Part shown: in pieces, positions 6,681 to 23,047 of the stretch
Position numbering within the stretch: position 1 is the stretch's first letter
Layout of the letters: each line of letters starts with the position of its first letter
From: Spirochaetales bacterium
GTDB lineage: Bacteria > Spirochaetota > GWE2-31-10 > MWDO01
Direction: 5' to 3'
DNA: 64,000 nt
Assembly: GCA_017540815.1 (NCBI GenBank)
Contig: JAFYAI010000144.1
Coordinates: forward strand, 67,705 to 131,704
Made by a program: the position numbers and the translations under genes
The notes under the pieces: model-generated
Databases searched by the model: none
What the model was told of the DNA's origin: nothing
The model's input: only the letters and a program-made list of their open reading frames with translations

Positions 6681-9041
6681 ATGAAGAATATTAGATTTTG
6701 CTTAACGGTTTTATTTTTATTTATTGCAGTTTCAGTTTATGCTGATTTGGCATTTGAGCCGGTCGCTGTTACTCAGCAAAATGACTTCCTTTTTCGGACG
6801 GTGGAGACGATCGGACAGAACACTGCCGTTCATACATTGTATCACGGCAGTTTCTCGGCTGCACAAGGCAAGGCTGTCTTCGAGGCACTCAGCTATTACC
6901 CTGAGAATCTCATCTATGCAGAGAAGTCCGGTAAAATATATATCCAAAATAAAACAGGATTATATGTCTATGATCTTGCAAAGAAAAATGTCAAAACAAT
7001 CGGGATCTGCCCCGGCATGCACAAAGGAGATGAGTATCCGATCTATCGACCGGAAGAGGCTGCCGTCTCACCGAACGACCGATTTGTCCTGAGTAAGAAT
7101 GCAGTATCTCCGACAAAAGCCAATCTTACAATATATGACATCCAGACCGGCAAATCAAAACTTGTATCCGAAAATGCCGAGATCAAACCGGGCAAGCCTG
7201 TGGCACTTTGGTCTAATGATTCCAATTATTTCATTTATCAGAAAAACGGCAGTGCTTACTATTATTCGATGACTGATTATCGCAATAAGAAGCAGCTCTC
7301 CGAAGAATCCCGCAAACTCGGTGAGGTTAATCTCGACAATATCCTGTGGACAGACAGCAACTACCTGATATGGATCGAGAATAATCTAATATGGCTGTCT
7401 GATCCGGCACAATTTTTCGCCCGATCGATCTATAAGAACTATCTGCGGCAGGGAGAGATCATCGGCAAGCTGCCGTTTGAGTTAGTGCCGGCAACCGATA
7501 AATTCATCTATAATGAATTATCCAAGAAATTCCTCATTGTCAAAGACGGTAATGCGATCTATTATTATTCGCTCAATGACGATATGCAGGAAAATCCTTA
7601 TCTCAAACTTGACGACAATGCACGCTATGACAAGTCGCTGCTGTTTAACAATGGCAATGCACTCTTTACAACGAAGGTAATCACTGACGGTACACAGAAA
7701 CGAAGGCTGTATCTTGTCAAGAAAACATCCGGCGAGATCAGAACCGAGATCTTGGACACTCTTGATCTGAGTGCAGTCGGTAAAAATGCCAGAAAACAGG
7801 AAATCGGCGAGACTGTTTATAAGATAAAAGAATTTGTCAAGCCTGAGTTTGCAGATGCTAAGATCACAACCGTTGCAGCAAATAAAAACGGCAGTGAGAT
7901 CCTTGTCTGCTGTGACAAAGGAGCATTCTGCTATGAATACGGCTCCGAAGAGCTGCTGTGGGCAATCAAAAATGAGCCTGTAGTATCAGCGGTGTGCCTG
8001 TCTCCGAACAAATGGATCGTAGGCGGACATCATCTGATATATCATGTAGATACTGATAGGAATATTAATGAGCCTATTATAGCAGGATCTGTAGATGATG
8101 CCGGATATATTGGCAAAAACGGTGTAGGTATTGTCTGCAATCAGGATATGTATCTTATAGATCCGGAGACTAAGACTCTGCATCCGATGTTCATTCGCCA
8201 TCCGGAACTGACTAAACAAACCGGTAATGGAGCATACCGTCTGCTTACACGAGATATACATCAGGGATTTTATCGGCAAAGCCTTGCTATGAAGCAGCTG
8301 GCTACAGGCAAGGAATTTGACATTATCGGAATGCCGAAACTCCGCTATAAGCTGTATCAGCCGGAGTTGGAGTCCGATGACAGTTATCTGGAAAATCCTG
8401 CAGGCAGCAAATATGAAGTTGCTCTTGTATTCGACTGTATTAAGACCGGAGAAGGTATGTTCCCGATCCTCAGCACACTTGCAGACTATCGCACTGACGC
8501 ATCATTCTTCATTAACGGTATGTTTATCGACATCAATCGTAAGATGACCAAAGAACTGTCATGTTTCCCTGTAGAGATCGGCAATATGTTCCAATTCTAT
8601 ATCAATCTGACAACATCCGATTTCCTGATTGACAAGAACTTCATCAGACAGGGACTGTCTACTAATGAAGAGAAATACTTCAATGTAACAGGGCGAAATT
8701 TCGTCTCATATTGGCATGCGCCTTTCCATGCGATCAATCAGGAGATGATCCAATACGGCCGTGAATGCGGTTATACTTATGTATCATACAACTTAGACAG
8801 CCGCGACGGACTGGACAAACGCAATCCTGATTCACAGAATCTGCGGACTAACTCTGAACTGACTCTTCGTCTGCTAGAGAATCTCAAACCAGGACAGATT
8901 ATCAATCTCTCCACCGGTAAGAATTACAACACTCGTGATGAATGGCTCTACGATGACCTTGATCTTGTGATATGTGAGCTGCTTCGCTCAGGCTACACAC
9001 TGACTACCGTCAGTGATATTATGAGGAGATATAGGAAGTAA
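6681..9041 (+). CDS. secreted 786-aa protein with a degenerate NodB/polysaccharide-deacetylase-like C-terminal region
   Basis: Signal peptide MKNIRFCLTVLFLFIAVSVYA. C-terminal VFDCIKTGEG...ASFFINGMF...VEIGN resembles NodB motifs 1-3, but the catalytic His residues are not conserved. Confidence 0.55.
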   Translation: MKNIRFCLTVLFLFIAVSVYADLAFEPVAVTQQNDFLFRTVETIGQNTAVHTLYHGSFSAAQGKAVFEALSYYPENLIYAEKSGKIYIQNKTGLYVYDLAKKNVKTIGICPGMHKGDEYPIYRPEEAAVSPNDRFVLSKNAVSPTKANLTIYDIQTGKSKLVSENAEIKPGKPVALWSNDSNYFIYQKNGSAYYYSMTDYRNKKQLSEESRKLGEVNLDNILWTDSNYLIWIENNLIWLSDPAQFFARSIYKNYLRQGEIIGKLPFELVPATDKFIYNELSKKFLIVKDGNAIYYYSLNDDMQENPYLKLDDNARYDKSLLFNNGNALFTTKVITDGTQKRRLYLVKKTSGEIRTEILDTLDLSAVGKNARKQEIGETVYKIKEFVKPEFADAKITTVAANKNGSEILVCCDKGAFCYEYGSEELLWAIKNEPVVSAVCLSPNKWIVGGHHLIYHVDTDRNINEPIIAGSVDDAGYIGKNGVGIVCNQDMYLIDPETKTLHPMFIRHPELTKQTGNGAYRLLTRDIHQGFYRQSLAMKQLATGKEFDIIGMPKLRYKLYQPELESDDSYLENPAGSKYEVALVFDCIKTGEGMFPILSTLADYRTDASFFINGMFIDINRKMTKELSCFPVEIGNMFQFYINLTTSDFLIDKNFIRQGLSTNEEKYFNVTGRNFVSYWHAPFHAINQEMIQYGRECGYTYVSYNLDSRDGLDKRNPDSQNLRTNSELTLRLLENLKPGQIINLSTGKNYNTRDEWLYDDLDLVICELLRSGYTLTTVSDIMRRYRK

Positions 9042-9087
9042 AAGCTGCTGGTCTCGGAGATACAAGAGTTGTAAAAAAAATAGGTTT

Positions 9088-9117
9088 TGCTGCACAAAAC
9101 CTATTTTTTTTACAGAA
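9088..9117. terminator. bidirectional rho-independent terminator
   Basis: aataggttttg-ctgca-caaaacctatt flanked by A-run and T-run, between convergent genes 6681..9041 (+) and 9130..10446 (-). Confidence 0.7.
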
Positions 9118-9129
9118 AATCTATTTTTT

Positions 9130-10446
9130 TTAATTATTATGAATTATGAATTGTGCATTATGAATTGCTTTCTCCACATCGCACAATTGTGCTGCTTCCG
9201 ATACGGAGATTGTTTCATAGCGGTTGTCCAGCGGATTGAAGGCATTGTCCGGCAGAAGGATTCGCACACCGAAGTCTGTCCGGAGCAAGTGATCCATATA
9301 GATCTTGAGTGAAACATCGCTGTCCAGCATCCTATCACCTGTCTTAATAACAGTCGGCTCTTTGCGGCATCGCAGTTCCAGCAATGTCTTATCAAGACTG
9401 TCATAATAACCCGTCTGTCCGAAGTATTCTGTCTCGAAGTACCCGCCGGGCACATGCGAGCGATGATTGCAGAATGAGAAGTCCTGCCCCATAAGTATCA
9501 CATTCTTAGCTCCAAGCTGCCGCACAATCCTAACAGCATTGAAAACAACGCTGCCCTCCGAACACGAGCGGATCACATCTGTCCCGGCAAAAACTTTGCG
9601 GTCGGTCTCATTCTCATAACTGAAGAATATCGGAGTAATGTTCGGCAGCCTTAGTATTGCAGGATTGATCGACAGCGGACAAATCAAAGCGGTCTCGGAT
9701 TTCAGGCCGCACAGATGATACAGCGTAGCATAGCCCGGATCAACTGCGATAACATAATCAGGCTCAATCCCGACAGAATGAAGATATTTCACCGATGACG
9801 GCAGAGCAAGAATCAGTGCCTTACTCTGCAAAGTCCTAAGCAGTTCAAGATAATCAGACAGACTTGCTCCGCTTGCCACAATCACCGCCGTGTCACAGAC
9901 ATTCTGAGGCGGCATATATGTTATATTCCCAAGCGTGCGAATGTTCCGGCCGGCATTACGCTCTTCCAGCTCGCCGAATGTGTCAGCGGCAGTCTTGGAA
10001 GCCGTAACTGTGAGGCACATATCCTTGATCTGTCCAAGCAGTTTAGCGGTATCGGCATTCTCATACGCTGATATATACGGAGTCCAGATAAGGATGTCAA
10101 TATCCGCCGCAGAGATCCCATTCTCCAGCAGAATGTTCTGAGCCTGCTGAATGGATTGCACACGACGGACAGCCGCATTCTTGGCAAACGGCTCAAAATC
10201 CGGCTCGCCACCTGACAAAACCGCCAAATCAAATGAGATAATCGTTGTGTAGCCACGCTCGGCAAGAGCATTATTAATGAAGTCTGCACCGCATATTGTA
10301 ACAGCGGCACTGTGATTGGGTTTGACATTCTGCTTCACGAATGAGTCAGCCTCGCGAAACGGGTCATAAGCAGAGTAGATAAACTTGCCGTCTAATGTGT
10401 AAGTCGGCTGCCCCTTGCGTCCGACAGTGCGAATGAATCGGCTCAT
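9130..10446 (-). CDS. DUF115 / 6-hydroxymethylpterin diphosphokinase MptE-like family protein (annotated in spirochaetes and Campylobacter as motility accessory factor)
   Basis: DTAVIVASGASLSDY...SKALILALPSS...GIEPDYVIAVDPG matches the DUF115 core (G.GPSL...PDy.i..D). Start overlaps the upstream acidic gene by 4 nt. C-terminus carries the IHNAQ..IHNN repeat element. Confidence 0.6.
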   Translation of the reverse strand: MSRFIRTVGRKGQPTYTLDGKFIYSAYDPFREADSFVKQNVKPNHSAAVTICGADFINNALAERGYTTIISFDLAVLSGGEPDFEPFAKNAAVRRVQSIQQAQNILLENGISAADIDILIWTPYISAYENADTAKLLGQIKDMCLTVTASKTAADTFGELEERNAGRNIRTLGNITYMPPQNVCDTAVIVASGASLSDYLELLRTLQSKALILALPSSVKYLHSVGIEPDYVIAVDPGYATLYHLCGLKSETALICPLSINPAILRLPNITPIFFSYENETDRKVFAGTDVIRSCSEGSVVFNAVRIVRQLGAKNVILMGQDFSFCNHRSHVPGGYFETEYFGQTGYYDSLDKTLLELRCRKEPTVIKTGDRMLDSDVSLKIYMDHLLRTDFGVRILLPDNAFNPLDNRYETISVSEAAQLCDVEKAIHNAQFIIHNN

Positions 10447-13400
10447 GAAAGTTCGGACAGCAGTGCCAGATAATCGCTCTGTGTAAATGAGTCATTAGCG
10501 GCACATTCAAAGCGGAACTCCGCAGCATTGCCGAATGCCTCTGAGAACAGCCCGACTATCTGCTCGATGATCATCTGTGTCGCAGCCTGAGCTTCTTCTT
10601 TCTCGGCATTTGGCAGAACAATGTAGAACTTATCGGGATCTGTGACCTCAACGAAACTGTCACCACCTATAATGCTCTGTGTCGTGCCTTTAATATCTTC
10701 GGCAAATGATATTAGCGAAAACTCGCCTACAGCCGCAGTTACATCTGCAGCATTGGTAAGGATCACCCTGCACAAAGACAGTGCCGCGCCGGACTCCCGC
10801 AGATCTTTCATAAATGTTGCAAGTCCTATATATTTGGCATCCAGATCATCAGGGATAGGTCGGACTTCAACAGGAGCATCTTCAGGCAGAGCCAAACCGG
10901 TATCTTCCATTATAATAGATTCGTTGTCAGTAGATTTCTCCGCTTCGCTCTCTTCGTTCGCTTCGGTCGAAATGACAGATTTCTCAACTTTTTCCAATTC
11001 TTCAGATTCTTCCTCATTATGCATTATGCATTGTGAATTATGAATTGTCTCTGATTCTTCGCAGAATGAGGATTCATCGATTATAATACTAGAATAATCA
11101 TCAGCTGCTGTCGGACTCGGTACAGGTGTGCCTGCCGCAGCAACAGGTTCTTCAGCAGAGATTGATTCTTCAGAGATTGACTCTTCTGCAGTGTCTGACT
11201 CTTCAGACGGAACATCTTCTTCTTCATCTGATGTGACTGCAGTATCCGGCTGTTCCGTTTCTTCGGCAGGCTCAACTGATGGGTTGACTTCTTCTTCAAG
11301 CTCAGCAGTATCTTCATGCTCAATTACCGATGGGATCTCAGCCTGCTCATTATCCACGGCATTATCCCATTCTGACATAAGTTCAGCAGCAAGCTCTTCT
11401 TCGGAGAAATCCGCATCATCATCTTCGATGATCTCTTCTGTATCGTCAGCAGTCTCCTGCTCCGACACTTCGTCAGACTCACTAACAGGCTCATCAATGG
11501 AAGGAACAGATTCTTCGGCAGGCTCATCCTCATTGTGCATCGTTTCTGTCACTTCGTAAGCCTCATCGGACGAGACGGACTCATTCTCATCATTGAGCAT
11601 TGTGCATTGTGCATTATTAATTGTTTCGTCCTCTTCTGCCTCATCTTCATATTCTTCACACATCACAGTGTATTGCTGATAGAGATTATACAGCATAGCA
11701 CCATTAAGTCGGCCGGCAACTTCCAAAGCACGGATGTAGTCCTCAGTAAGATCTGATGCAGAATGTGTTACAAGCATTATACCGATAATCCGCGATGAGA
11801 ATACAAACGGGATCCACAACTGGAACTCCGTCTCGGCAAAGTCTTGCTCCGACATAATATCTGCCAGTCCGCCAAACTGAGGTTCATCATTATTGACAAG
11901 GTATGATTTCTTATTGGCGAGATTGCCATATATGCCGTTATAATTAAGATCGAAAGCGAGTTTTTCCTCAGTCTCATCATCATAACCGATCTTCGCCATA
12001 CATTTAAACAACCCGTCATCCGGATCAAACAGCTGCAGACTGCATCGGTCTATCTCAAATCTGTCAGCGACACACGCTAAGAAATTGTCAAACATATTTT
12101 CATCGACGGCGATTGAAGCTGTCTGTGCAGATATATCATCAAGCACTGCCAGATAGTCATTGTATTGTTTGGAAGTACCTTCATCAGATGAAGTATTCTC
12201 ATCTGTATCTGAATTGTTCTCCTGATCTGCAAGACCGTCATCCTGATCTGCAAGACCGTCATCCTGATCTGCCAAACCGTCATCCTGAACTTGATTCAGG
12301 ATCTCATCATCAGATTTCTCCGCTTCGGTCGAAATGACAGATCCTTCGCTTCCATCAGATGAAGTGCCATCATCTGATACACCGTCAACGGATTTCTCCG
12401 CTTCGGTCGAAATGACAGATCCTTCGTTTCCATCAGATGATGAACCGGCATCACCTGACTCATCATCAGTCAGACTATCCTCTTCATTGTGCATTGTGGA
12501 TTGTGCATTATTAATTGTCTCAGGCTCATTGTCTTCACTACTATCTGACGGATAAATCCACTCGATATTCTCTTCTTCTTGATTAGCAGATTCTTCTTCA
12601 ATATCAGCAGCATTTTCGGATTCATCGTATTCATCTTCTGCAGCAGGCAGGTCTTCTACAGCCGGCAGTTCAGCCATATCGCTGTCTTCATCATCAGCAG
12701 GAACGGAGATCTCATCATCGGTTAAGTTATCAGCGTTATCCGTCTCATTATCTTCGGATTGATCGGCCGTAAGTATGCCCGTAGGCAGATCCTCATTGAC
12801 ATCCGGGGCAGGCTCATCCGTCGGAGGCAGCTGAGTAAATGACACATTATTATCAGTGAAAGTCTTCTCTGTAACCGCATCAGCATCATAAACTATAGCA
12901 TCACCTACGAAACTTGTTCCCTGTGTTACTTCTTCGATAATATTTTCATCAAACGAAGAATCCACTGCTTCGACAAACTCAGCTGTCGGAGCGGTTTCAG
13001 CATCATCATTGCCAGCTTCGTTCGCTTCGCTCGAATTGTCATCTGCTGATGAGTCGTCATCCTGAACTTGATTCAAGATCTCATCATCAGATTTCTCCGC
13101 TTCGGTCGAAATGACAGATCCTTCGTTTCCGTCAGATGATGTATCATCATTACCTGACTCATCGTCAGTCGGATTATCCTCTTCATTGTGCAGTGTGGAT
13201 TGTGCATTGTCCATTGTTTCCGACTCACCGTCACCGCCCATTTGAGCCAAGAGTGCTGCAAACGGATCATCGTCTCTCGGCAAGTCTATTATGAGGACTT
13301 CTTCTTCGTAGTCAGGCTGCTGCTCCTGAACCGAATCGCCTTCCAAAAAAAAAGTCTCTCCGTCTTTGTCTGTATCTGCTTCATCCGCATTGGGGATAAC

Positions 13401-13703
13401 TTCTGATGATGACTGACTGTCCTCAGCAGCACAGACCTGAGCCTCTATCTCGGCAAGCCGCTGACGAACAGTTTCTTCATCCGGCATAATATCGGCGACG
13501 GTCGGCTCATTAATCGGGTGGAACTCTGACGCATCTGGCAGAGGCGGCAGAACCGGCTCGCCGCCGATCTTCATCTCGGCTGCCGTTTCTGCTTTATCTT
13601 TAGAGTTCAGATAATCAAGGGCCTGTGCGAGCAGTCCCTCATTCGGTCTGTCCAAAAACTCTTCTCTGTATAACGATGCTTTGTCAAATAAACCCTTACT
13701 CAT
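10443..13703 (-). CDS. 1086-aa poly-acidic protein with a central GAF domain and a C-terminal degenerate GGDEF (GGDSF) domain
   Basis: GAF-like block at about aa 505-680 (nt ~11660-12190). C-terminus ...AALSLCRVILTNAAD...IGGDSFVEVTDPDKFYIVLPNAEKEEA... aligns to the GGDEF core with the signature degraded. Remaining ~700 aa are D/E/S/T/N-rich with internal repeats. Confidence 0.7.
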   Translation of the reverse strand: MSKGLFDKASLYREEFLDRPNEGLLAQALDYLNSKDKAETAAEMKIGGEPVLPPLPDASEFHPINEPTVADIMPDEETVRQRLAEIEAQVCAAEDSQSSSEVIPNADEADTDKDGETFFLEGDSVQEQQPDYEEEVLIIDLPRDDDPFAALLAQMGGDGESETMDNAQSTLHNEEDNPTDDESGNDDTSSDGNEGSVISTEAEKSDDEILNQVQDDDSSADDNSSEANEAGNDDAETAPTAEFVEAVDSSFDENIIEEVTQGTSFVGDAIVYDADAVTEKTFTDNNVSFTQLPPTDEPAPDVNEDLPTGILTADQSEDNETDNADNLTDDEISVPADDEDSDMAELPAVEDLPAAEDEYDESENAADIEEESANQEEENIEWIYPSDSSEDNEPETINNAQSTMHNEEDSLTDDESGDAGSSSDGNEGSVISTEAEKSVDGVSDDGTSSDGSEGSVISTEAEKSDDEILNQVQDDGLADQDDGLADQDDGLADQENNSDTDENTSSDEGTSKQYNDYLAVLDDISAQTASIAVDENMFDNFLACVADRFEIDRCSLQLFDPDDGLFKCMAKIGYDDETEEKLAFDLNYNGIYGNLANKKSYLVNNDEPQFGGLADIMSEQDFAETEFQLWIPFVFSSRIIGIMLVTHSASDLTEDYIRALEVAGRLNGAMLYNLYQQYTVMCEEYEDEAEEDETINNAQCTMLNDENESVSSDEAYEVTETMHNEDEPAEESVPSIDEPVSESDEVSEQETADDTEEIIEDDDADFSEEELAAELMSEWDNAVDNEQAEIPSVIEHEDTAELEEEVNPSVEPAEETEQPDTAVTSDEEEDVPSEESDTAEESISEESISAEEPVAAAGTPVPSPTAADDYSSIIIDESSFCEESETIHNSQCIMHNEEESEELEKVEKSVISTEANEESEAEKSTDNESIIMEDTGLALPEDAPVEVRPIPDDLDAKYIGLATFMKDLRESGAALSLCRVILTNAADVTAAVGEFSLISFAEDIKGTTQSIIGGDSFVEVTDPDKFYIVLPNAEKEEAQAATQMIIEQIVGLFSEAFGNAAEFRFECAANDSFTQSDYLALLSELS
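12226..12290. repeat. 21-bp in-frame tandem repeat x3 (gatctgcaagaccgtcatcct), encoding DDGLADQ x3
   Basis: Seen directly inside the 10443..13703 CDS. Confidence 0.8.
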
Positions 13704-13765
13704 TGTCTCCCGCCTGAATTTAGTTTTATTTTATTATTTTGTCACTGCAGTATGTAACGACATTA

Positions 13766-16402
13766 TCAATGTTTAATGTCAAGCTGCTCAAACAATCGTC
13801 TGTATGCCTCAAATTCTTTCGATTCAGCGAATTCTTTGATCTTCTCCTCCGGCAATGCTCCCATCAGCGAGTCAAGACAAGTCAGGACATTCTTAATGTC
13901 TTCCTTAAGCTCAGTGTCAGTCTCACCTGCAGGTGCAGCCTCTTCGTCATTAGCTGAGTCCTCATTCTGCAGCGAATCAAATATCTGATTAGTCTCTTCT
14001 TCGGAGATGTCGATCTTAGTATCTTCCGCATCGTCATCAATGTCAGCAACGGACTCCTCGCCGGCTACATCTTCGATACAACCAAGGTCAGCAATGCCGT
14101 CTGCCGGCTCTAAGTCAGCCTCGAAACTTGCCAAATCTATAGTCTCACTCTCATCTTCAGTATTCTGATCAGCAGCACTTATGTCTGCATCATCCAAGTT
14201 CATATCAGCAGCAGCATCAGGCTCAAGGCTTGTCTCCAATGTGTCAGTCTCCAATGCGGCATCATCAATGCTGTCAGCCATATCTGCACCTACATCAATA
14301 TCAGACAAAGTGTCATCCGATGCAGGAACAACTATAGCCTGCTCTGAGAGTTCTTCGGCATTATCGCTGCTGTCGCCTATGATCTTCGTATCATCAGCGG
14401 CATCTTCAGTATTGTCAATAATGCTGCCATTATCATCGACATTCTCATAGAGATCAAGGTCTCCGTTAGTCATGATGTTGTTATCCACGACGGACTCTTC
14501 TGTCGTCTCATTATCTGCTGAGATGTCTGTCTCACCCGGGATAGTCACAGATGCGGCAAGCTCCTCATCCGATAAGAACTCATCGTCATTCTCAAATGAC
14601 GGATCATCAGGAATATTGATTGACTCGGCAAGCTCCTCATCTGTCGGCGGAATATCCACATCCACCATCTCAGTCTCGGACATATCGGCATCTACAAGGA
14701 TATTATCCAACTCATCACCGGACAGTCCGATAGTCTCATCTTCATCTTCATCATCAAATGTCGTCGGTGCAGGAATATCATCTACATCGAGATCATCGAG
14801 ACTGCCGACATCACCCGGCATCTCATCAGTTATAATATCTGACTCATCCGCAGTTTCTTCAGTCAGAACATCAGCGTCTGTTATATCTTCCAATGTATCA
14901 GGCAGTTCCTCATCGAGGCTGATCTCTGTATCATCAGCAGCTGCATCTTCGCTAAGTGTGTCAGCTGCAGTATTGTCATCATCTGCAATCTCTGCACTGT
15001 CAAGGTCGATGCCAAGATCCTCATCACCGTCAAGTGCTATCCTGTCATCTTCATCATCATTGTCTGCAGGCTCTTCTATAGATGCTGCCAATGCCTCGTC
15101 AACGACGACATCACCTGCCAGCGTTGCTTCTGTAAGTTCCTCGTCCTGAGCCTCTGTCTCACTGTCTGCCGGCATCGACTCTTCCAAAGCAGTAAGATCA
15201 TCATCGCTGATCAGATTGCTGTCTGCAGCACCAACCGAACTCAGATCCTCGATAGTATCATCGAAACCTTCCAATTCATCTGCAACGGAATTATCCGTAT
15301 CACTGTCTTCTATATCTGTCAGAGCATCCTGTTCTTCTGTTTCATCAGGCTCATTAGTATCAGCAAAACTGTCACTGTCAGATCCAATATCAATATCAGC
15401 CAAAATATCTTCTGACTCGTCCGACAGGAATGCGTTCTGTTCTTCATCTACGACAAGTTCATCTTCATGCGGCATAGGGATATTAAGCATCTTACCGCTG
15501 TCGTCCCCGGTCTGCTCCAGCACATCATCAATGTCAATGTCAGACAGAGCGTCATCCTGCTCTACATCAAACTCAAGATCATCATCAGAAGTAATATCAT
15601 AATGCTCATTATCGTCTGTTTCCTCACTCTCAGTATCTGATGCTTCTTCCAAACCAATATCTGACAATTCATCAAGGCCTTCAAGATCATCCGCCGTATC
15701 AGCAGCATCATTGTCACTGTCATCCGTGTCATCAGCCAAGTCGGTCTCTTCTTCAAGTATGTCATCACCATCTGACAGATCCGCATCACCGAAGTCGCCA
15801 AAATCATCATCTGATGATATTTCATTATCTGTATTATTTTCAGGCTCTACCACCTGTGTAAATGCTATCGTTACAGGACCGATCTTAAGATCTACGCCAT
15901 ACGCATCATCATCGTCATCATCTGACTCGTCATCATCATAAGCATCGCTGTCGAAGTTAGCTATATCTTCATCGCTAATATCTGGTGTGATCGGAGCCGA
16001 CTCAACATCATCGTCTAAACCAGCCTCTAATGACAGATCCAGATCATCATCAGTCAGATCCTCTCCAGCTTCAGTCGGTTCCCCTGTTGTATCAATGGCA
16101 TCAGGATAATCCACAATGTCATTGTCAGACATATCTGACTCTATCGGAGCGACATCACCGGATACGGCTGCATCATTATCCGATTCCACACCGGAATAAT
16201 CCAGATTATCGAGATTATCCAAGTCATCGGCTGACGGATTATCTTCATCCGGCATCACATCATCGAGATTCAGGTCAAGATCAGTGTCAAGGTCAAAGTT
16301 ATCCAAGTCATCAAGACCCGATAATGTGTCTTCATCATGCAGAAGTGTCTCGGATTCCAGTCCGTCCAAACCTAAATCATTATATTTTTCATTTGCAGCC
16401 AT
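13766..16402 (-). CDS. 878-aa poly-acidic low-complexity protein with a short helical C-terminal tail
   Basis: Continuous ORF, very D/E/L/S-rich (DDLDNLDNLD...). GGAGCA RBS before ATG 16402. Same strand and immediately upstream of the GAF/GGDSF acidic protein. Confidence 0.65.
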   Translation of the reverse strand: MAANEKYNDLGLDGLESETLLHDEDTLSGLDDLDNFDLDTDLDLNLDDVMPDEDNPSADDLDNLDNLDYSGVESDNDAAVSGDVAPIESDMSDNDIVDYPDAIDTTGEPTEAGEDLTDDDLDLSLEAGLDDDVESAPITPDISDEDIANFDSDAYDDDESDDDDDDAYGVDLKIGPVTIAFTQVVEPENNTDNEISSDDDFGDFGDADLSDGDDILEEETDLADDTDDSDNDAADTADDLEGLDELSDIGLEEASDTESEETDDNEHYDITSDDDLEFDVEQDDALSDIDIDDVLEQTGDDSGKMLNIPMPHEDELVVDEEQNAFLSDESEDILADIDIGSDSDSFADTNEPDETEEQDALTDIEDSDTDNSVADELEGFDDTIEDLSSVGAADSNLISDDDLTALEESMPADSETEAQDEELTEATLAGDVVVDEALAASIEEPADNDDEDDRIALDGDEDLGIDLDSAEIADDDNTAADTLSEDAAADDTEISLDEELPDTLEDITDADVLTEETADESDIITDEMPGDVGSLDDLDVDDIPAPTTFDDEDEDETIGLSGDELDNILVDADMSETEMVDVDIPPTDEELAESINIPDDPSFENDDEFLSDEELAASVTIPGETDISADNETTEESVVDNNIMTNGDLDLYENVDDNGSIIDNTEDAADDTKIIGDSSDNAEELSEQAIVVPASDDTLSDIDVGADMADSIDDAALETDTLETSLEPDAAADMNLDDADISAADQNTEDESETIDLASFEADLEPADGIADLGCIEDVAGEESVADIDDDAEDTKIDISEEETNQIFDSLQNEDSANDEEAAPAGETDTELKEDIKNVLTCLDSLMGALPEEKIKEFAESKEFEAYRRLFEQLDIKH

Positions 16403-16471: not shown

Positions 16472-16972
16472 TTATTTATCTTCCGATATGCTAAAATCTT
16501 CCTCACAGCGTATTTTGAGATTTTCATAATTCTTAATGTTGTTGTATGCCGGGTTCTTGTTAAACAGGAATGTATCATATTCTGTGAGTTCCTTAAAGAA
16601 GTCACAAACTTTTTTGCGGAAGACCTCCACATTCATACCGTAGTTCTTCAGAGCCATCTGAGCCATCACCCGCTCGTTGGCATCTTTCGGCACGAAGTCC
16701 GCTCCCGTGAATGTCACATGCGGCATAACATGCTTAACTATCATATCTATATAATCCATAGTTGCTGCTACACCCATATACAGATCCTCAACCGCACCTC
16801 TGGAATCGATATAATACAGATCACCTTTGAGCAGGAAGTCCTTATTCTGCTGGACATGTATAGGCACATCCATTCTAAGCAGTGCTTTTTTTACATATTT
16901 GTTATTAATATTTGTATTATAATGATTCTGTATGTCCTTTACTGATTTCTTAATCGTATCTGCTGTTACCAT
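16472..16972 (-). CDS. hypothetical protein (166 aa)
   Basis: ORF only; no recognisable motif. Confidence 0.4.
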   Translation of the reverse strand: MVTADTIKKSVKDIQNHYNTNINNKYVKKALLRMDVPIHVQQNKDFLLKGDLYYIDSRGAVEDLYMGVAATMDYIDMIVKHVMPHVTFTGADFVPKDANERVMAQMALKNYGMNVEVFRKKVCDFFKELTEYDTFLFNKNPAYNNIKNYENLKIRCEEDFSISEDK

Positions 16973-17065: not shown

Positions 17066-17983
17066 TTATAATATTTGCTTTCTTAACTCACTGACGCTGA
17101 TAATATTCTGACAAAAACTGGCTATCTCACTAGCCAATATCTGTTTAACGCGGTCATCATCTACAACGACTGTGACATTCTTCCGTATCTTTTGATCCAG
17201 TTCTCCGCCGAATGCACATATCTGCATAGCAAGCTCATACTTTGCTTTCATATCCGCATTCTTAGGCAGCATAATGTGATAATGCTGTCCGTGCAGTTTA
17301 TCTTCCTTAATAATATGACGAACTCTGCACAGCTGCTTTATCTTCATGCGGTATTCCTTCGCTGCACGGGACTGCTTCTTCTGTGACAAATATCTGCCGG
17401 TATCTATGACAGTCCTTTCTGCTGCCTTAATCGCTTCCGCCAAAGACAGCCGATACTCCGCACAGAATCCTCTCAGCACAAACATCGTCATCTTAGCATC
17501 GTCGGCACTGTTATGAGCGGTGAGTTTGCTCATATTCACATCAAACCTCTGAGCCCATTTAACCAGCTTCATATCCTCATCTACCTTCGTATGCAGTATG
17601 CTGACCAGATCATAGATCTGCGTCCTCGGCAGCTCGGTCTCGTATCTGCGGCAGGTATAGTCAAGGAAACCTATGTCATTCTTCGGAGCAAATCCTATAA
17701 TACGCCCGCTGTGTTCTGTCATCAGCTGATATATCTTAGGATAGTAATGCGGGAACTTCGGCGATGACAAGAACTTCTGCTTAGGATATGAGAGACTCAC
17801 ATCTATCTTCTTGGAGAAAAATGCCCAATCAAACTTACTCTCCGGATTCATAACGAGATCGTCACATTCTATAATATTAAACCGCTCGTCACAGATCACA
17901 TATCCGAATGAACAAATCTTGCCCTCACCGCCGAAACAGTTGGCACATTCAATATCGAAAAATAAATATTCATTATCTGTCAT
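17066..17983 (-). CDS. DEDDh-type 3'-5' exonuclease (DnaQ-like fold)
   Basis: Exo I FFDIE, Exo II-like DIGFLDY, Exo III H-x4-D (HNSADDA). Start overlaps the upstream adenylate cyclase stop by 4 nt. Confidence 0.7.
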   Translation of the reverse strand: MTDNEYLFFDIECANCFGGEGKICSFGYVICDERFNIIECDDLVMNPESKFDWAFFSKKIDVSLSYPKQKFLSSPKFPHYYPKIYQLMTEHSGRIIGFAPKNDIGFLDYTCRRYETELPRTQIYDLVSILHTKVDEDMKLVKWAQRFDVNMSKLTAHNSADDAKMTMFVLRGFCAEYRLSLAEAIKAAERTVIDTGRYLSQKKQSRAAKEYRMKIKQLCRVRHIIKEDKLHGQHYHIMLPKNADMKAKYELAMQICAFGGELDQKIRKNVTVVVDDDRVKQILASEIASFCQNIISVSELRKQIL

Positions 17984-19851
17984 ACCATATTCACCGTATA
18001 TATTACTTCATTCTTATTTTCATCATCGAGCCGTATCGTGTCAAGTGCCGACAGCTTATACTTATCAGACAAGCCATACTGATCTGCGAATGTCTGACTC
18101 ACTATGATTGGCTGCTTATACTTCTTAGTCAGGGCTTCAAGACGCAACACAGTATTGACTGCACCGGAGATTGTCAGTCCTGTCATCCTGTCTTCCTCAC
18201 CGACAGTCATCAGCACTACCTCTCCGTAGTGAATACCTATCCCAATGCGGAATGTATCATTGTCCCGCAGATGGAACTCATTGTTTAACTCCGATACTGC
18301 TTTCTGAATAGCGATCGCACATTCGGCAGCTCGCACTCCGTCATTAGGGAACAGAACTATAATGCCGTCACCGAGATATTTCTCGATGAATCCGCCGTGA
18401 TCACGGATAATCGGACCTATCGTTGACAGGTATTTATTCAGCACATCGAATACTTCATCTTCGGAGAGCTTCTCACTCATTACAGTGAAGTCGCGCACAT
18501 CTGCCGACATTATTGCCAGCGACTTGGTGCTGCGATCGTCAAGCTGCACATCGGTGATATTGTCCTTACCGAGCAGAGTCAGGAACTCTTTCGGCACAAA
18601 TCTATAATAGATCTCATTCGTCTGAGTTAAGTTATCAGACATCTTCCTAATCCTCTTCATACTGTCTTCGCGGTTTTTGGCAGTGATATATGACTGAGCA
18701 GCAACGAATATCAAAGCCGAATACGGCAGGAGCATAACTGTCGGGAATGGCACAGGAATATAATTGAATGTAGCCATATCATGTGCTCCAAAGAGGAATA
18801 TCATCAATGTCGTTAAAGCCATCATCAGTCCGGTATCGACACGGCCTTTCTGGAAACTCAGTCTGAACTGTGCAGAGATCATCGCAATGGAACTAATCAC
18901 AAAATCAACCTGCAATATCGGCACAAGCCTGCTGATAAAACTTATCTCTCCGAGCCATACAAGCACACCAAATACAGAATTAATAATAAATGTATAAATA
19001 TCACTCTTATATGGGAACTTATCCGCTCCGTACAGATAACGAACATACATCGCATAGCATGCAGGGCAGAGGAACAATGCTGTATATTCCATTTTAAGAC
19101 ACAATATATATGGCACCTGCGGAAAATAAAACTTTAGAATAGAGAACCCTTGCACAATGATCCGCATTGCTATGCCAAGACTGAACAGTGATAAGAAAAG
19201 ACTGACCTTATCATCCGGCTGTGTCAGATAAAATATAAAATGGAAGAACATTATAAAAAACAACATACCGAGGAAGATAAATCTCCTGTTTACATCTCGG
19301 ATGAAGTTCCGCTGCATAACATTACGCTCTCCGAAACGGATATTGCCCCAGATACCGCCTTTGCGATGGAAGTTATTGGACACATGCAGAATAAGGTCTA
19401 TGCAGCCATCACTGTCGCAGAACATATCGACTAACTTCATACTCTGATCACCTTCAGCCTGAGTCCAATCCTCATTAGGCTTGCCGACAGTGATGAGGAG
19501 TTCCCCGTTAGCATACAGATTAAACGATGTTCCTATCGCATCATATAAGAATAATGTATACTGGATGGACGGGTTCAAACCGTCTATCTGCAACCGAAAT
19601 GTACCGCAGCCAAGCCCGTTAGGGAAGTAAGCATTCCATACACACGGAGGAGTAACTGTATCATCAGCAGTCTGGTCATCAATATCCTCAGGCGAGATGA
19701 ACCGTCCCTGATAAAACTCCCACGGCACATTCAGCATAATCCTCTTAGACTTGAGTTCTTCATGCGAAGGAGCATGGAACACCTCAGCGTGCAAAGCGGC
19801 TGATATGAAAAGCATAATGAATATTACATGCAGGCCCTTATCAATTAGCAA
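17980..19851 (-). CDS. class III adenylate/guanylate cyclase with 7TMR-DISM periplasmic and membrane sensor domains
   Basis: Signal peptide plus about 200-aa exodomain, 7 TM helices, C-terminal CHD (FRIGIGIHYGEVVLMTVGEE...). Confidence 0.85.
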   Translation of the reverse strand: MLIDKGLHVIFIMLFISAALHAEVFHAPSHEELKSKRIMLNVPWEFYQGRFISPEDIDDQTADDTVTPPCVWNAYFPNGLGCGTFRLQIDGLNPSIQYTLFLYDAIGTSFNLYANGELLITVGKPNEDWTQAEGDQSMKLVDMFCDSDGCIDLILHVSNNFHRKGGIWGNIRFGERNVMQRNFIRDVNRRFIFLGMLFFIMFFHFIFYLTQPDDKVSLFLSLFSLGIAMRIIVQGFSILKFYFPQVPYILCLKMEYTALFLCPACYAMYVRYLYGADKFPYKSDIYTFIINSVFGVLVWLGEISFISRLVPILQVDFVISSIAMISAQFRLSFQKGRVDTGLMMALTTLMIFLFGAHDMATFNYIPVPFPTVMLLPYSALIFVAAQSYITAKNREDSMKRIRKMSDNLTQTNEIYYRFVPKEFLTLLGKDNITDVQLDDRSTKSLAIMSADVRDFTVMSEKLSEDEVFDVLNKYLSTIGPIIRDHGGFIEKYLGDGIIVLFPNDGVRAAECAIAIQKAVSELNNEFHLRDNDTFRIGIGIHYGEVVLMTVGEEDRMTGLTISGAVNTVLRLEALTKKYKQPIIVSQTFADQYGLSDKYKLSALDTIRLDDENKNEVIYTVNMV

Positions 19852-19860
19852 ATATTGCTC

Positions 19861-22800
19861 CTACATCACTCTGTATATGTGCATCAGACCTTTGCCTTTG
19901 ATCTCCTGCTCTTCCTGACCGATGAGATTTGCTTCATCTTTGATAAGATCGTATGTCATCTGACTGACAGTGATCAGTCCTTCTTTGCCGTAGTGTTCCA
20001 TACGGCTGGCAGTATTGACTGTATCCCCCCATATATCATAGATAAACTTAGTCTTGCCGATAACACCTGCAGTAATAGTTCCTGAGCTGATACCGATACG
20101 CATACCAACTTTCATCTCGGCTGTCTCATTGTATTCTTTAATATCATTAAGCATACCTCTCGCGAACTCAAGCAACACTAAGGCATGCTTAGGATTTGCT
20201 TCAGGCACACCGCACGCAGCCATATAGCAGTCTCCGATAGTCTTGATCTTCTCTACACCCATATTCTCTGCACGCAGGTCAAATCTGGTAAACAAGTCAT
20301 TGAGATACAGAACAAGTTCGTGCGGAGTGCATGTACTGGACAGTTTGGTGAATCCTACAATGTCTGCAAACAGAACTGATGTTTCCGCAAATGAGTCTGC
20401 TATGATCTCCTCTGTATCTTTGAGCTGATCTGCAATCGGACGCGGCAGTATATTGAGCAGCAGAGCCTCTGACTTGTCTTTCTCTATCTGCAGATCCTTG
20501 GTCCTTTCATCAACGACTCTCTCAAGATACAGCTGCTGTTTCTTCATGCGGCTCATCCTCACTACATAGAACAATGCGAACAGTCCGGCTGCAGTCAAGA
20601 CACACAGGATAGCGAACCAAATAGTCTGGTAAAAATACACCTGCTTAACAAATGTGATCTGAGCCGGTGCAGTACTCCATACGCCGTCTCCATTGACGGT
20701 GCTGACAGAGAATGTATATTTACCGGCAGGCAGGTTAGTATATGATACCTGACGCTGAGATGTAACTTTGGATGCGGTTGTATCGAACCCGATCAGCTGA
20801 TATTTGAAGCCTACTCTCTCCAACGAAACATAACTAAGACCTACAAAATCAATCGTAATACGGTTGGCATTCGCAGGTATATCTATCTTGCTGTCATAAG
20901 GATTGAATGTCTGCTCCTCAGTGCTGATCTTCTCTATATACACAAGCGGCGGCACAGAACTTAGACTGGCTGACGGATTATACGAAGTAAAGCCTGTCGC
21001 CATCGGAAACCACAAACACCCCCGTGAATCCATACAGCTAAGCGATGTGCTTGTCAGTCCGCTTGGGAATAATCCGTCATTCTTATTGTATAATTTGGTC
21101 TCCAGCATTATATTCCTGCCTTCAGCGATCATATCCAGCTGCACAGCAGGCACAGAACATAAGCCGGAGTTGGTAACAAACCACGCCATGTCATTCTGAT
21201 CAAACAATATCTGGAATATCGAATCTGCCGGCAATCCTGCAGCCATATTGAATGTAACAAAATGATCGGCATTAAGATCATATTTGGTTACACCTGAGCC
21301 TGTACAGATCCAATAGCTGCCTTTCTTATCCTGCATTATCTTAAATATAACATTGCCGGCAAGCCCCTTATCCGTATCTATTACATCAAATATTTTACCG
21401 TCACGGATCAGATTAACACCGCCGCCGTCAGTGCCAACCCACAGGACATGATTATTATCCTCATACAGACACATTATGAAATCATTAGTCAGTCCGTCTA
21501 TCTTAGTCATCACTTCAATCTTCTCCACAATAAATGATGACGGATTATTGGGATCTTGTCGCCTCGTCAGGATATTGAGACCTTTTGCGGTTCCGACTGC
21601 GATTCGTCCGTCATGAAGTTCCAATGCTACACGGCATCTGTCTATCGACAGACCGTTCTTGCTGGATATGCTCTTGATATTGCCGTCTTTGATAAATACG
21701 ACACCCGCATCTGAATATGTAGACACCATCAGAGTGCCGTCCTTGCTCCATGCAAGATCACGAATACGCCTGTGCTTGAAATACTCTACAATCTCATTGT
21801 TAAGCAGTTTGCCGTTATAACAGATCAGACCGCTGTCTGTTCCTATAAAGAATCTCCCCCTGCTTGTATCTTCCGTAATGCAATTAACGGCAGACTCTGT
21901 AGGTATGGAATGAAATCTGACCTTAGTCAGTTTCTCTATACCGCCGAGGTTTGTTCCTATCCAGATATTGTCCTCTCTGTCTTTGAATATCTTCAATATC
22001 GAGTTATTGATGAGACCTTCATTCTCAGTATAATACTCCACATGTCCGCCGAATGAAACATAGATAATACCGGTCTGTGTTCCAATCCAGATATTCTTGT
22101 TATCATCTTCCATAAATGTATTTATCTCGGACTGACTGATAAATCCTTCCTGTCCTACATACTGCTGCAGATGTATATCAGCATCATCAGCAAATAATTC
22201 AGTAGTCTTGATCCTATAGACGCTGTTATTTCGCAGACCAAACCACATATACCCCATTGAATCTTGGAATACTATCGAAGCGATAACTCCCTGCAGAAAT
22301 TTCGGTTTATATATCTTAAATGCTCCATCCCGTTTGGTATATCGATATACATTGCCGGCTGTAGTCGTTGCCCATATAGATCCGTATATATCACAATACA
22401 GCCGAACTATTGTAGCATCCTGCAGTCCGTTATATTCCAGTCCTCCTATCCTGGACAGATTGTTATTGGTATCATAGACTACGACACCGTTGGATGTACC
22501 TATCCATATATCTCCGTTGTTGCCTTCGATAATGCTCCGGATAGACTTGCTCGGCAGATCTTCATTGATTAATGTCAGGCTGCTTCGCTGTGCATTCTGA
22601 TATGCCAATCCTTCATCATTGCTGCCTATCCATAATCGTCGCTTGGAGTCCTCCATTACAACACGAGCAGATATGAATGGTGACACTTTAGAAGTATTTC
22701 TGTTAAGGACAGAAAACTTTACTCCATCGAACTTAATAAGTCCTGCATAAGACCCCATGTATATATATCCCAGATAGTCCTGCACCATCGATGTTATCGT

Positions 22801-22929
22801 ATTAGTTGGCAGCCCGTCATCACTTGACCATCGGCGGGAAACATACTCCGACAGGAAACTCTCCTGTGCATATACCATCCCGATACACAGCATCATAACT
22901 GTAATAAGTCCGAGTTTAATCTTTTTCAT
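19861..22929 (-). CDS. class III adenylate cyclase fused to a periplasmic two-component-regulator propeller / Y_Y_Y sensor
   Basis: Signal peptide, repeated WIGT/W.GT propeller blades, one TM helix, then CHD (VLFADIVGFT...IKTIGDCYMAA...GDTVNTASRME). Confidence 0.85.
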   Translation of the reverse strand: MKKIKLGLITVMMLCIGMVYAQESFLSEYVSRRWSSDDGLPTNTITSMVQDYLGYIYMGSYAGLIKFDGVKFSVLNRNTSKVSPFISARVVMEDSKRRLWIGSNDEGLAYQNAQRSSLTLINEDLPSKSIRSIIEGNNGDIWIGTSNGVVVYDTNNNLSRIGGLEYNGLQDATIVRLYCDIYGSIWATTTAGNVYRYTKRDGAFKIYKPKFLQGVIASIVFQDSMGYMWFGLRNNSVYRIKTTELFADDADIHLQQYVGQEGFISQSEINTFMEDDNKNIWIGTQTGIIYVSFGGHVEYYTENEGLINNSILKIFKDREDNIWIGTNLGGIEKLTKVRFHSIPTESAVNCITEDTSRGRFFIGTDSGLICYNGKLLNNEIVEYFKHRRIRDLAWSKDGTLMVSTYSDAGVVFIKDGNIKSISSKNGLSIDRCRVALELHDGRIAVGTAKGLNILTRRQDPNNPSSFIVEKIEVMTKIDGLTNDFIMCLYEDNNHVLWVGTDGGGVNLIRDGKIFDVIDTDKGLAGNVIFKIMQDKKGSYWICTGSGVTKYDLNADHFVTFNMAAGLPADSIFQILFDQNDMAWFVTNSGLCSVPAVQLDMIAEGRNIMLETKLYNKNDGLFPSGLTSTSLSCMDSRGCLWFPMATGFTSYNPSASLSSVPPLVYIEKISTEEQTFNPYDSKIDIPANANRITIDFVGLSYVSLERVGFKYQLIGFDTTASKVTSQRQVSYTNLPAGKYTFSVSTVNGDGVWSTAPAQITFVKQVYFYQTIWFAILCVLTAAGLFALFYVVRMSRMKKQQLYLERVVDERTKDLQIEKDKSEALLLNILPRPIADQLKDTEEIIADSFAETSVLFADIVGFTKLSSTCTPHELVLYLNDLFTRFDLRAENMGVEKIKTIGDCYMAACGVPEANPKHALVLLEFARGMLNDIKEYNETAEMKVGMRIGISSGTITAGVIGKTKFIYDIWGDTVNTASRMEHYGKEGLITVSQMTYDLIKDEANLIGQEEQEIKGKGLMHIYRVM

Positions 22930-23047
22930 ACAATGTTACTCCATCTATGTCATCCCAAACCTGCTTTGGGATCTCCTCACAAAAAATGCCAAAACAGCAT
23001 TGCATAACGCTTCCTTGCGGCGGCGGAAGTTCAGCCCCAAAATATTA

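Follow-up and report, generated by a model that had tools for sequence, protein, structure and literature searches.

A TP_0179-family poly-acidic protein and its GAF/pseudo-GGDEF neighbour form a conserved gene pair of Spirochaetota with a putative role in the periplasmic-flagellum system

On contig JAFYAI010000144.1, from the metagenome-assembled genome (MAG) of an uncultured Spirochaetales bacterium, two consecutive minus-strand genes encode large and strongly acidic proteins, here named A (13766-16402) and B (10443-13703) after their positions in the analysed stretch of 64,000 nucleotides (the window). Sequence comparison places A in the Pfam family TP_0179 (PF27359), B is predicted to combine a GAF fold with a catalytically dead GGDEF fold, and both genes recur side by side in other Spirochaetota together with genes for FliS, FapA or DUF115 proteins of the Maf type. 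With moderate confidence we read A and B as this genome's copy of a Spirochaetota-wide pair that serves as a cytoplasmic accessory module of the periplasmic-flagellum system, made up of a scaffold and a pseudo-enzyme adaptor. The results behind this reading are the open reading frames (ORFs) and their composition, the folds, the absence of catalytic and I-site residues, the assignment of A to its family, conserved gene order and motif enrichment; the flagellar role, the scaffold/adaptor mechanism and the binding partners are proposed from gene context and motifs.

Related loci were collected by an alignment scan of species-representative genomes with the A tail, via two exact A-tail peptide patterns, which yielded 37 loci, all from MAGs or uncultured genomes of Spirochaetota (Spirochaetales, Spirochaetaceae, Brevinematales and Exilispira). 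A is followed by a recognisable B-like gene in 24 loci, in at least 28 of 38 the next gene opens with MGLLxKAxxY, and one or two DUF115 genes come after B in at least 14, mostly with overlapping stop and start codons; the order A, B-like, DUF115 (one or two copies) holds in Spirochaetales and Spirochaetaceae loci. Beyond DUF115, the downstream genes in several loci revealed no consistent extra partner, with only TPR proteins found in one of them (L011). Six Brevinematales loci (L037, L038, L039, L040, L042, L043) exhibit a tight four-gene cluster, fliS-A-B-fapA, that is set between unrelated flanks and contains no DUF115 gene, as seen in L038 at 7559-12438 (Brevinematales bacterium NS, CP053071.1), with FliS (PF02561) assigned at E=7e-39 and FapA (PF03961) at E=4e-40. 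The B-like protein of this cluster carries two GAF domains (GAF_3, 54.4 bits against a cutoff of 27, E=2e-14) and a degenerate GGDEF domain, which in L039 scores 26.6 bits and hence lies above the Pfam threshold. In Borrelia, fapA is found in the flagellar operon beside flhG and flhF (PMC11607428). Since the recurrent partners, namely the flagellin chaperone FliS, the flagellar assembly protein FapA and Maf-type DUF115 enzymes, all suggest a flagellar connection, the pair would represent a cytoplasmic flagellar accessory module, and of the roles listed in a preliminary description of this DNA it is that of a flagellar-associated scaffold that comparative genomics favours. A periplasmic location, also suggested there, finds no support in direct reading of the sequences: neither the A nor the B N-terminus resembles a signal peptide or membrane segment. 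For want of a signal peptide we likewise rejected an adhesin or other secreted protein.

Several observations weigh against a flagellar assignment. The scan with exact patterns biases the sample and retrieved no cultured genus, whilst five loci (L022, L030, L031, L033, L034) show no B-like gene after A. Near the pair in the window there are no flagellin, nonulosonic-acid or flagellar structural genes, its neighbours being housekeeping genes and cyclases; the DUF115 protein belongs to a broad family and falls far below the equivalog cutoff of the flagellin-modification model PseD (NCBIfam NF050051; E=3.8e-12, 45.6 bits against 670); and searching PDB sequences with a profile of the A motif that resembles FliM (see below) did not retrieve FliM, in a test that was underpowered.

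The coordinates and lengths of both ORFs agree exactly with those given previously. A contains 37.4% Asp and Glu (D+E) and 1.6% Lys and Arg, with a net charge of -314, and B contains 28.3% D+E with a net charge of -269; for 37 other genes of the window the D+E content averages 12.7% (standard deviation 1.6%, maximum 15.8%), making A an outlier by 15 and B by 9.6 standard deviations. Both proteins are, as had been proposed, mostly disordered poly-acidic sequence with few folded islands, although the accompanying figure of roughly 40% acidic residues fits A and only the linkers of B (35-50%), not B as a whole. No hydrophobic segment appears in the composition profile of A. Its membership of PF27359 rests on similarity to proteins bearing this annotation and not on a direct model score: a whole-protein Pfam scan of A returned no family, because the PF27359 model is absent from the Pfam copy scanned, and NCBIfam gave nothing at E<=0.1. 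PF27359 was encountered as the precomputed annotation of the gene upstream of B homologues, and all eight database matches of the A tail carry it (E 4.5e-45 to 1.5e-10). A BLASTP comparison of A with the annotated protein of locus L007 aligned the tail at 41% identity (E=8e-21), with another aligned segment over GVDLKxGP; with P0058 the tail shares 73% identity, and with further PF27359-bearing proteins 41-47%. The family shares with A its poly-acidic, low-complexity body (D+E 25-39%, 260-1796 aa) as well as tail and short motifs, and it was the tail region of the query that recovered all homologues, with a conserved pattern of ...LPEEKIKEFAESKxFExYRxLFExL. The largest member found, of 1796 aa and 31% D+E, comes from a goat caecum Spirochaetaceae MAG (L024, 4784-10174), where it is followed by a 337-aa protein with the MGL motif and then by two DUF115 genes. 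The eponymous TP0179 of Treponema pallidum figures in published work only as a hypothetical protein, one segment of which is recombinant and under positive selection (PMC8789261); our literature search on TP0177-TP0181 found nothing functional.

Conservation in A is not confined to the tail, as had been thought, since YGVDLKIGP, IGLSGDELDNIL and ETIDLASFE are conserved family motifs too. Many A-family members contain GVDLKxGPxT or YGVWVKxGP (consensus YGV(D/W)(L/V)KxGP), and ETIDLASFE recurs as ETIDLxxFE. The third motif, with the family consensus E-x-E-T-I-(A/G)-L-S-x-x-E-L-D-N-I-L, is present as LSxxELDNIL in 30 of 34 complete A-family ORFs, in up to five copies per protein. Altogether 41 copies were counted where shuffling would lead one to expect 0.7, and 128,327 aa of other genes gave one match; the motif is enriched about 200-fold. 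FlhG also binds the EIDAL motif of FliM and FliY. The sequence LSQxEIDALL is the consensus within the disordered FliM N-terminus that binds phosphorylated CheY (CheY-P) (PMC6700473), and an EIDAL motif is also named in FliY (PMC12826062). Compared to LSQxEIDALL, IGLSGDELDNIL has the same spacing, with L, S, E, D and the final L matching and I/L swaps in between; it resembles the FliM/FliY motif also in residing in a disordered segment and in a flagellar gene context, whereas it differs in being internal rather than N-terminal, in being repeated four to five times in some proteins and in being embedded in a poly-acidic chain. We treat this likeness, read from sequence, as a lead and not as a demonstrated relationship. 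In two loci (L012, 8156-10147; L014, 4043-6265) LSxxELDNIL occurs four or five times with a spacing of approximately 52-63 residues, a regularity that suggests multivalent binding by these A-family proteins.

For B, phmmer was run exhaustively against 1.84 billion representatives and retrieved only 32 relatives, and those with a source name are all hypothetical proteins from Spirochaetota MAGs. Pfam and NCBIfam scans of the full-length protein gave nothing useful, an exact look-up found no record and a word-indexed search for homologues of the isolated GAF island returned no match. Common to the relatives are a duplicated N-terminal motif (MGLLxKAxxYRE...KGLLxKALxYLE), a central island and a C-terminal domain, so that the N-terminal region, too, is borne out as a conserved island. 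The homologues are often mildly acidic (D+E 13-25%). The central island was modelled using AlphaFold2 (AF2) with a family alignment of 24 sequences, giving a mean predicted local distance difference test (pLDDT) score of 91.1, and a Foldseek comparison with the PDB matched many GAF structures with a probability of 1.0 and TM scores of 0.6-0.7, whilst the profile of the B family matched the PtsP GAF domain (3ci6) at E=6.3e-5. The model thus identifies residues 505-685 as a GAF fold, in accordance with the earlier domain assignment, though the island scores 16.4 bits against Pfam GAF (PF01590), which is below the cutoff of 22.4.

The C-terminal domain of B (residues 955-1086) exhibits the palm-like GGDEF fold in its model, with a score for Pfam GGDEF (PF00990) of 12.8 bits, under the cutoff of 23.8. 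Its modelled hairpin runs from beta2 (FVEVTD) through the turn (PD) into beta3 (KFYIVLP). Alignment with the DosC profile is weak (E=0.74), yet consistent with the strands of the model: the DosC RSSD falls opposite G-t-n-g of the family and the DosC GGDEF opposite d-d-l-s-i, whilst beta1 (LCRVILTN) aligns with LIIDVDKF of DosC, with Ile and Thr in place of the metal-binding Asp. Homologues have DDISM, DDMSI, DNLDI or ASNKI at the hairpin position. An RxxD I-site, located five residues before the signature, is absent, with GGDS found there in B of the window and GTNG, GQNG, GANG or DPDG in homologues; degenerate active, I- and metal sites are seen in B and in all homologues inspected, including those from Brevinematales. 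As the GG(D/E)EF hairpin reads DPDKF and the metal-binding Asp is missing, the domain is, on the evidence of model and sequence, catalytically dead and devoid of the usual site for cyclic di-GMP (c-di-GMP). The preliminary description was right about the fold and about the loss of catalysis; GGDSF, which it had taken as the signature, is out of register. Because homologues read GTNGF, GTNAF, DPDGY, GQNGF, GANGL or GEDCF at this position, the resemblance of GGDSF to GGDEF is a lineage-specific coincidence.

Taken as a flagellar accessory module, the pair would work as follows. A would be an intrinsically disordered poly-anionic scaffold that displays short linear motifs and a C-terminal region of about 50 aa, and B a soluble adaptor or sensor in which a basic amphipathic motif at the N-terminus is joined to a GAF domain, which may have a small molecule as its ligand, and to a pseudo-enzyme of GGDEF fold. 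With neither c-di-GMP synthesis nor RxxD binding, B probably acts through protein contacts. Both genes would be co-transcribed and translationally coupled with a short Maf-type putative flagellin glycosyltransferase: the stop codon of B and the start codon of the DUF115 gene overlap by 4 nt (ATGA), which supports the coupling proposed earlier, and such overlaps recur in relatives. The DUF115 protein scores 85.7 bits for MptE-like/MAF_flag10 (PF01973; cutoff 34.6), and its sole match among PDB sequences is 5mu5 (E=0.003), a Maf flagellin glycosyltransferase. DUF115 homologues at a greater distance (35-39% identity; L002-L004) are preceded by Cpn10 and have no acidic pair, so that DUF115 alone does not predict the pair. 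Maf/DUF115 proteins are known as flagellin nonulosonic-acid glycosyltransferases, and a 441-aa Maf-2 without a flagellin-binding domain of its own requires a cis-encoded adaptor, GlfM, small accessory genes adjoining Maf being needed for flagellin recognition (bioRxiv 10.1101/2023.12.03.569772); in Treponema, FlaB is O-glycosylated with nonulosonic acid, which is essential for filament assembly (PMC13439194). By analogy, the DUF115 enzyme may require cis-encoded partners as well. The two systems are alike in placing a short Maf/DUF115 enzyme (438 aa here) beside accessory genes, but GlfM is an 89-aa four-helix bundle whilst A and B are large, acidic and of unrelated fold, and the pair in the window lacks adjacent flagellin or sugar-biosynthesis genes.

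It is this DUF115 gene that allows for a different reading, in which flagellin is not the substrate of the enzyme and A and B are accessory to a non-flagellar glycosylation or envelope cassette. The breadth of the DUF115/MptE-like family and the distance of this member from the curated flagellin-modification model speak for it, as do a convergent polysaccharide deacetylase neighbour, a glycogen-synthase-type glycosyltransferase nearby and the finding that the 64-kb window holds neither flagellar genes nor a flagellin or nonulosonic-acid cluster around the DUF115 gene. However, deacetylase and glycosyltransferase are not among the families that recur around the pair elsewhere, in Brevinematales the pair is flanked by fliS and fapA and DUF115 is missing altogether, and the only solved relative, 5mu5, is a Maf flagellin glycosyltransferase; we therefore consider a non-flagellar cassette unlikely.

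A more specific version of the flagellar reading can also be formulated, in which TP_0179 proteins are spirochete-specific, cytoplasmic poly-anionic hubs: EIDAL-like motifs would capture CheY-P and/or the MinD-like ATPase FlhG, the GAF/pseudo-GGDEF partner would add a metabolic signal, and the two proteins would jointly determine how many flagella are made or where they are placed, how flagellin matures or how the two polar motor bundles are coordinated. In this specific form the proposal is speculative and, in our estimate, just as unlikely to be correct as the cassette. HubP, FimV and PopZ are polar hubs that arrange flagellar, chemotaxis and ParA/MinD-like (FlhG) proteins, and A likewise has long acidic disordered regions and a short conserved module at its C-terminus. 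The parallel is purely functional, as A has no LysM, membrane segment or FimV C-terminal domain and no sequence relationship was detected.

The preliminary description had instead connected the pair to cyclic-nucleotide signalling. Spelled out, the GAF domain in this reading would sense cyclic AMP (cAMP) or cyclic GMP from the adjacent cyclases and the pseudo-GGDEF domain would be a c-di-GMP receptor controlling the poly-anionic proteins. Three class III cyclases do lie 1.6-8.5 kb upstream on the same strand, and the top Foldseek match of the GAF island is the cAMP-bound GAF domain of Lcd1 (5w10, 14% identity). The proposed wiring to this array does not survive the comparison of loci: in none of the 38 related loci is a cyclase found close to A and B, and the exonuclease, CheX and 166-aa protein seen in the window are missing from their vicinity there as well. 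With both the RxxD I-site and the active-site motif absent, no known c-di-GMP contact is left; the ligand cannot be read from a GAF fold alone, and a ligand-binding GAF domain is also compatible with the flagellar reading and does not set the two apart. Lcd1 of Leptospira, a cAMP-activated diguanylate cyclase, shares with B the spirochete GAF-GGDEF architecture, but its GGDEF domain is active whereas in B both the GG(D/E)EF motif and the metal-binding Asp are missing, and an identity of 14% is too low to infer a ligand. A cyclic-nucleotide module thus appears slightly less likely again than a non-flagellar cassette. Even less probable is a generic poly-anion role, be it divalent-cation buffering, DNA or polyphosphate mimicry or an entropic spacer: whilst the extreme net charges, the low complexity and the conserved acidity of the A family agree with such a role, bulk charge leaves the conserved motifs, the tail, the obligatory partner gene with its folded domains and the specific neighbours unexplained, and the B homologues with their often mild acidity do not follow the pattern.

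Finally, an assembly artefact or decaying, repeat-expanded pseudogenes, to which several dispersed repeat modules in B and a contig break inside B in another assembly of the same species might point, are barely credible in view of the uninterrupted B genes in the window and in independent assemblies of two relatives, of conserved islands between drifting linkers, of repeat copies that are all in frame and of an A family that is intact in about 34 genomes. The B orthologues of these relatives comprise 1073 and 1060 aa, and a further, more distant relative has a partial one; as they read through in independent assemblies, B is not a frameshifted pseudogene, the possibility that had been named as a refutation. 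Comparison of B with its L005 orthologue shows 83% identity in the N-terminal region, 84% in the GAF island and 90% in the C-terminal domain, all without gaps, whereas identity falls to 47-51% in the two linkers, whose alignments contain 90 and 124 gap columns. This contrast between conserved islands and drifting linkers indicates functional folded domains on fast-evolving disordered linkers. In case of A, close assemblies hold C-terminal fragments only, and uninterrupted A-family ORFs (360-1796 aa) are found in more distant species. In the assembly with the contig break (L001, 1-1872; GCA_017529645.1), which has the same DUF115 protein, the contig ends at about residue 464 of B in a repeat region; this suggests repeat-related assembly trouble and makes short-read assemblies of B fragile.

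The size of B in the lineage of the window (1060-1086 aa, compared to typically 400-670 aa in the family) is due to in-frame repeat modules that enlarge the linkers. A composite module is present or absent at differing places in L005, P0014 and P0016. Its heptad element, (CATTGTG)n of about 45 nt, occurs at 9127-9171, 11007-11051, 11583-11627, 12477-12521 and 13176-13220, in one shared orientation and nowhere else in the 64 kb, with positions that vary in the same three relatives; the four copies within B are in frame and encode ETINNAQSTMHNEE-like peptides, and the copy at the 3' end of the DUF115 gene supplies the last residues of that protein, AIHNAQFIIHNN. A hairpin element of about 30 nt, AGATTTCTCCGCTTCGGTCGAAATGAC, is present in five in-frame copies encoding SVISTEAEKS, a second hairpin element encodes EILNQVQDD, and a perfect 21-nt tandem repeat (12220-12288, 3.3 copies) that is absent from the L005 and P0014 orthologues produces DDGLADQ three times in the first linker. 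Rfam has no family at the repeat modules of B, AGATTTCTCCGCTTCGGTCGAAATGAC included. The 24-nt core of AGATTTCTCCGCTTCGGTCGAAATGAC is found exactly in more than 120 metagenome contigs (termite gut, marine, soil, sediment), with unrelated flanks, mostly outside long ORFs and sometimes as tandem (36-nt period) or inverted pairs. The acidic linkers of B thus appear to tolerate the capture of a promiscuous hairpin repeat, an example of how disordered linkers can take up such repeats in frame. In L018 (10369-12306) the first linker of a B homologue contains a perfect (EITD)n run of approximately 18 copies, indicating that simple repeats have lengthened linkers elsewhere in the B family as well.

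The statement that no system of this architecture had been described needs qualification. A falls into PF27359, an existing but uncharacterised family, and the combination of GAF and degenerate GGDEF is a known domain pairing, as in PelD of Pseudomonas aeruginosa, a membrane-anchored c-di-GMP receptor that binds its ligand at the RxxD I-site; B differs from PelD in lacking a membrane segment and RxxD and in having long acidic linkers and a distinct N-terminal motif. Both the domains and the A family are hence already catalogued though uncharacterised, and the pair can be likened to degenerate-GGDEF adaptors, acidic scaffolds and Maf accessory factors. We found no functional study of the pair, and the searchable literature held no description of the conserved pairing, the flagellar neighbourhood or the EIDAL-like motif. 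Two odd ORFs have become a defined, phylum-wide gene pair, which includes a family named for T. pallidum TP0179, so far known for signals of recombination and selection only, which is tied genomically to fliS, fapA and Maf-type genes and which offers testable handles in the EIDAL-like motif, the dead GGDEF domain without I-site and the GAF pocket. Spirochete motility underlies the invasiveness of the agents of syphilis, Lyme disease, leptospirosis and periodontitis. If the flagellar role is true, the pair would be an unstudied cytoplasmic component of spirochete flagellar assembly or control, and A an example of a giant bacterial poly-anionic disordered scaffold acting via short linear motifs; should the hub proposal hold as well, it would add a new regulatory layer to the old question of how motors at opposite ends of a spirochete are coordinated.

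Table 1. Positions of genes, domains, motifs and repeats of the acidic gene pair within the window.
Feature	Coordinates	Strand	Remarks
Gene A	13766-16402	minus	878 aa, poly-acidic, mostly disordered, TP_0179 family (PF27359)
A motif YGVDLKIGP	15875-15901	minus	residues 168-176; aligned with L007
A motif IGLSGDELDNIL	14696-14731	minus	residues 558-569; EIDAL-like
A motif ETIDLASFE	14120-14146	minus	residues 753-761; conserved
A C-terminal conserved region LKEDIKNVLTCLDSLMGALPEEKIKEFAESKEFEAYRRLFEQLDIKH	13769-13927	minus	residues ~826-878; 32 invariant columns in alignment A1
Gene B	10443-13703	minus	1086 aa: N-motif, acidic linker, GAF, acidic linker, pseudo-GGDEF
B N-terminal motif MSKGLFDKASLYREEFLDRPNEGLLAQALDYLNSK	13569-13703	minus	residues 1-45; duplicated GLLxKAxxY
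B GAF domain	11649-12191	minus	residues ~505-685; AF2 model, Foldseek
B degenerate GGDEF-fold domain	10446-10841	minus	residues ~955-1086
GGDSF	10653-10667	minus	alpha2-beta2 loop, I-site (RxxD) position
DPDKF	10626-10640	minus	structural equivalent of the GG(D/E)EF active-site hairpin
Composite in-frame repeat module in B	12276-12533; second copy 13053-13232	minus	heptad element, two hairpin elements, 21-nt tandem nearby
Hairpin element AGATTTCTCCGCTTCGGTCGAAATGAC copies	10952-10977, 12314-12339, 12392-12417, 13016-13041, 13091-13116		also L046, L095, L099, L114
DUF115/MptE-like (Maf-type) gene	9130-10446	minus	438 aa, coupled to B by 4-nt ATGA overlap
Promoter-like TTGACG, 17/18 spacing, TTATAT/TATATA	16450-16445; 16427-16421	minus	upstream of A; read off sequence
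GAGGAG, putative ribosome-binding site	16413-16408	minus	upstream of A; read off sequence
Perfect 20-bp A+T-rich hairpin	9070-9114	minus	between DUF115 gene and convergent gene

With regard to the flanks of the pair, a consensus promoter scan did not list the promoter-like sequence upstream of A, which the preliminary description had called a strong sigma70-like promoter, among its candidates, and the A+T-rich hairpin behind the DUF115 gene marks the probable end of the transcription unit. An ORF of 166 aa (16472-16972) lies 69 nt upstream of A on the same strand; it has no Pfam or NCBIfam family and is not adjacent to the pair in other loci. The three tandem class III adenylate/guanylate cyclase genes (17980-24937) are equipped with two 7TMR-DISM membrane sensors and one Reg_prop/Y_Y_Y sensor, and CheX is encoded about 4 kb from the pair, a placement that is not conserved. 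The rest of the window consists of housekeeping metabolism genes. At 36449-37843 there is a Schlafen AlbA_2/HATPase_c_4/winged-helix protein within a low-GC stretch (33-35% GC, 36-38 kb), which may be a small foreign island.

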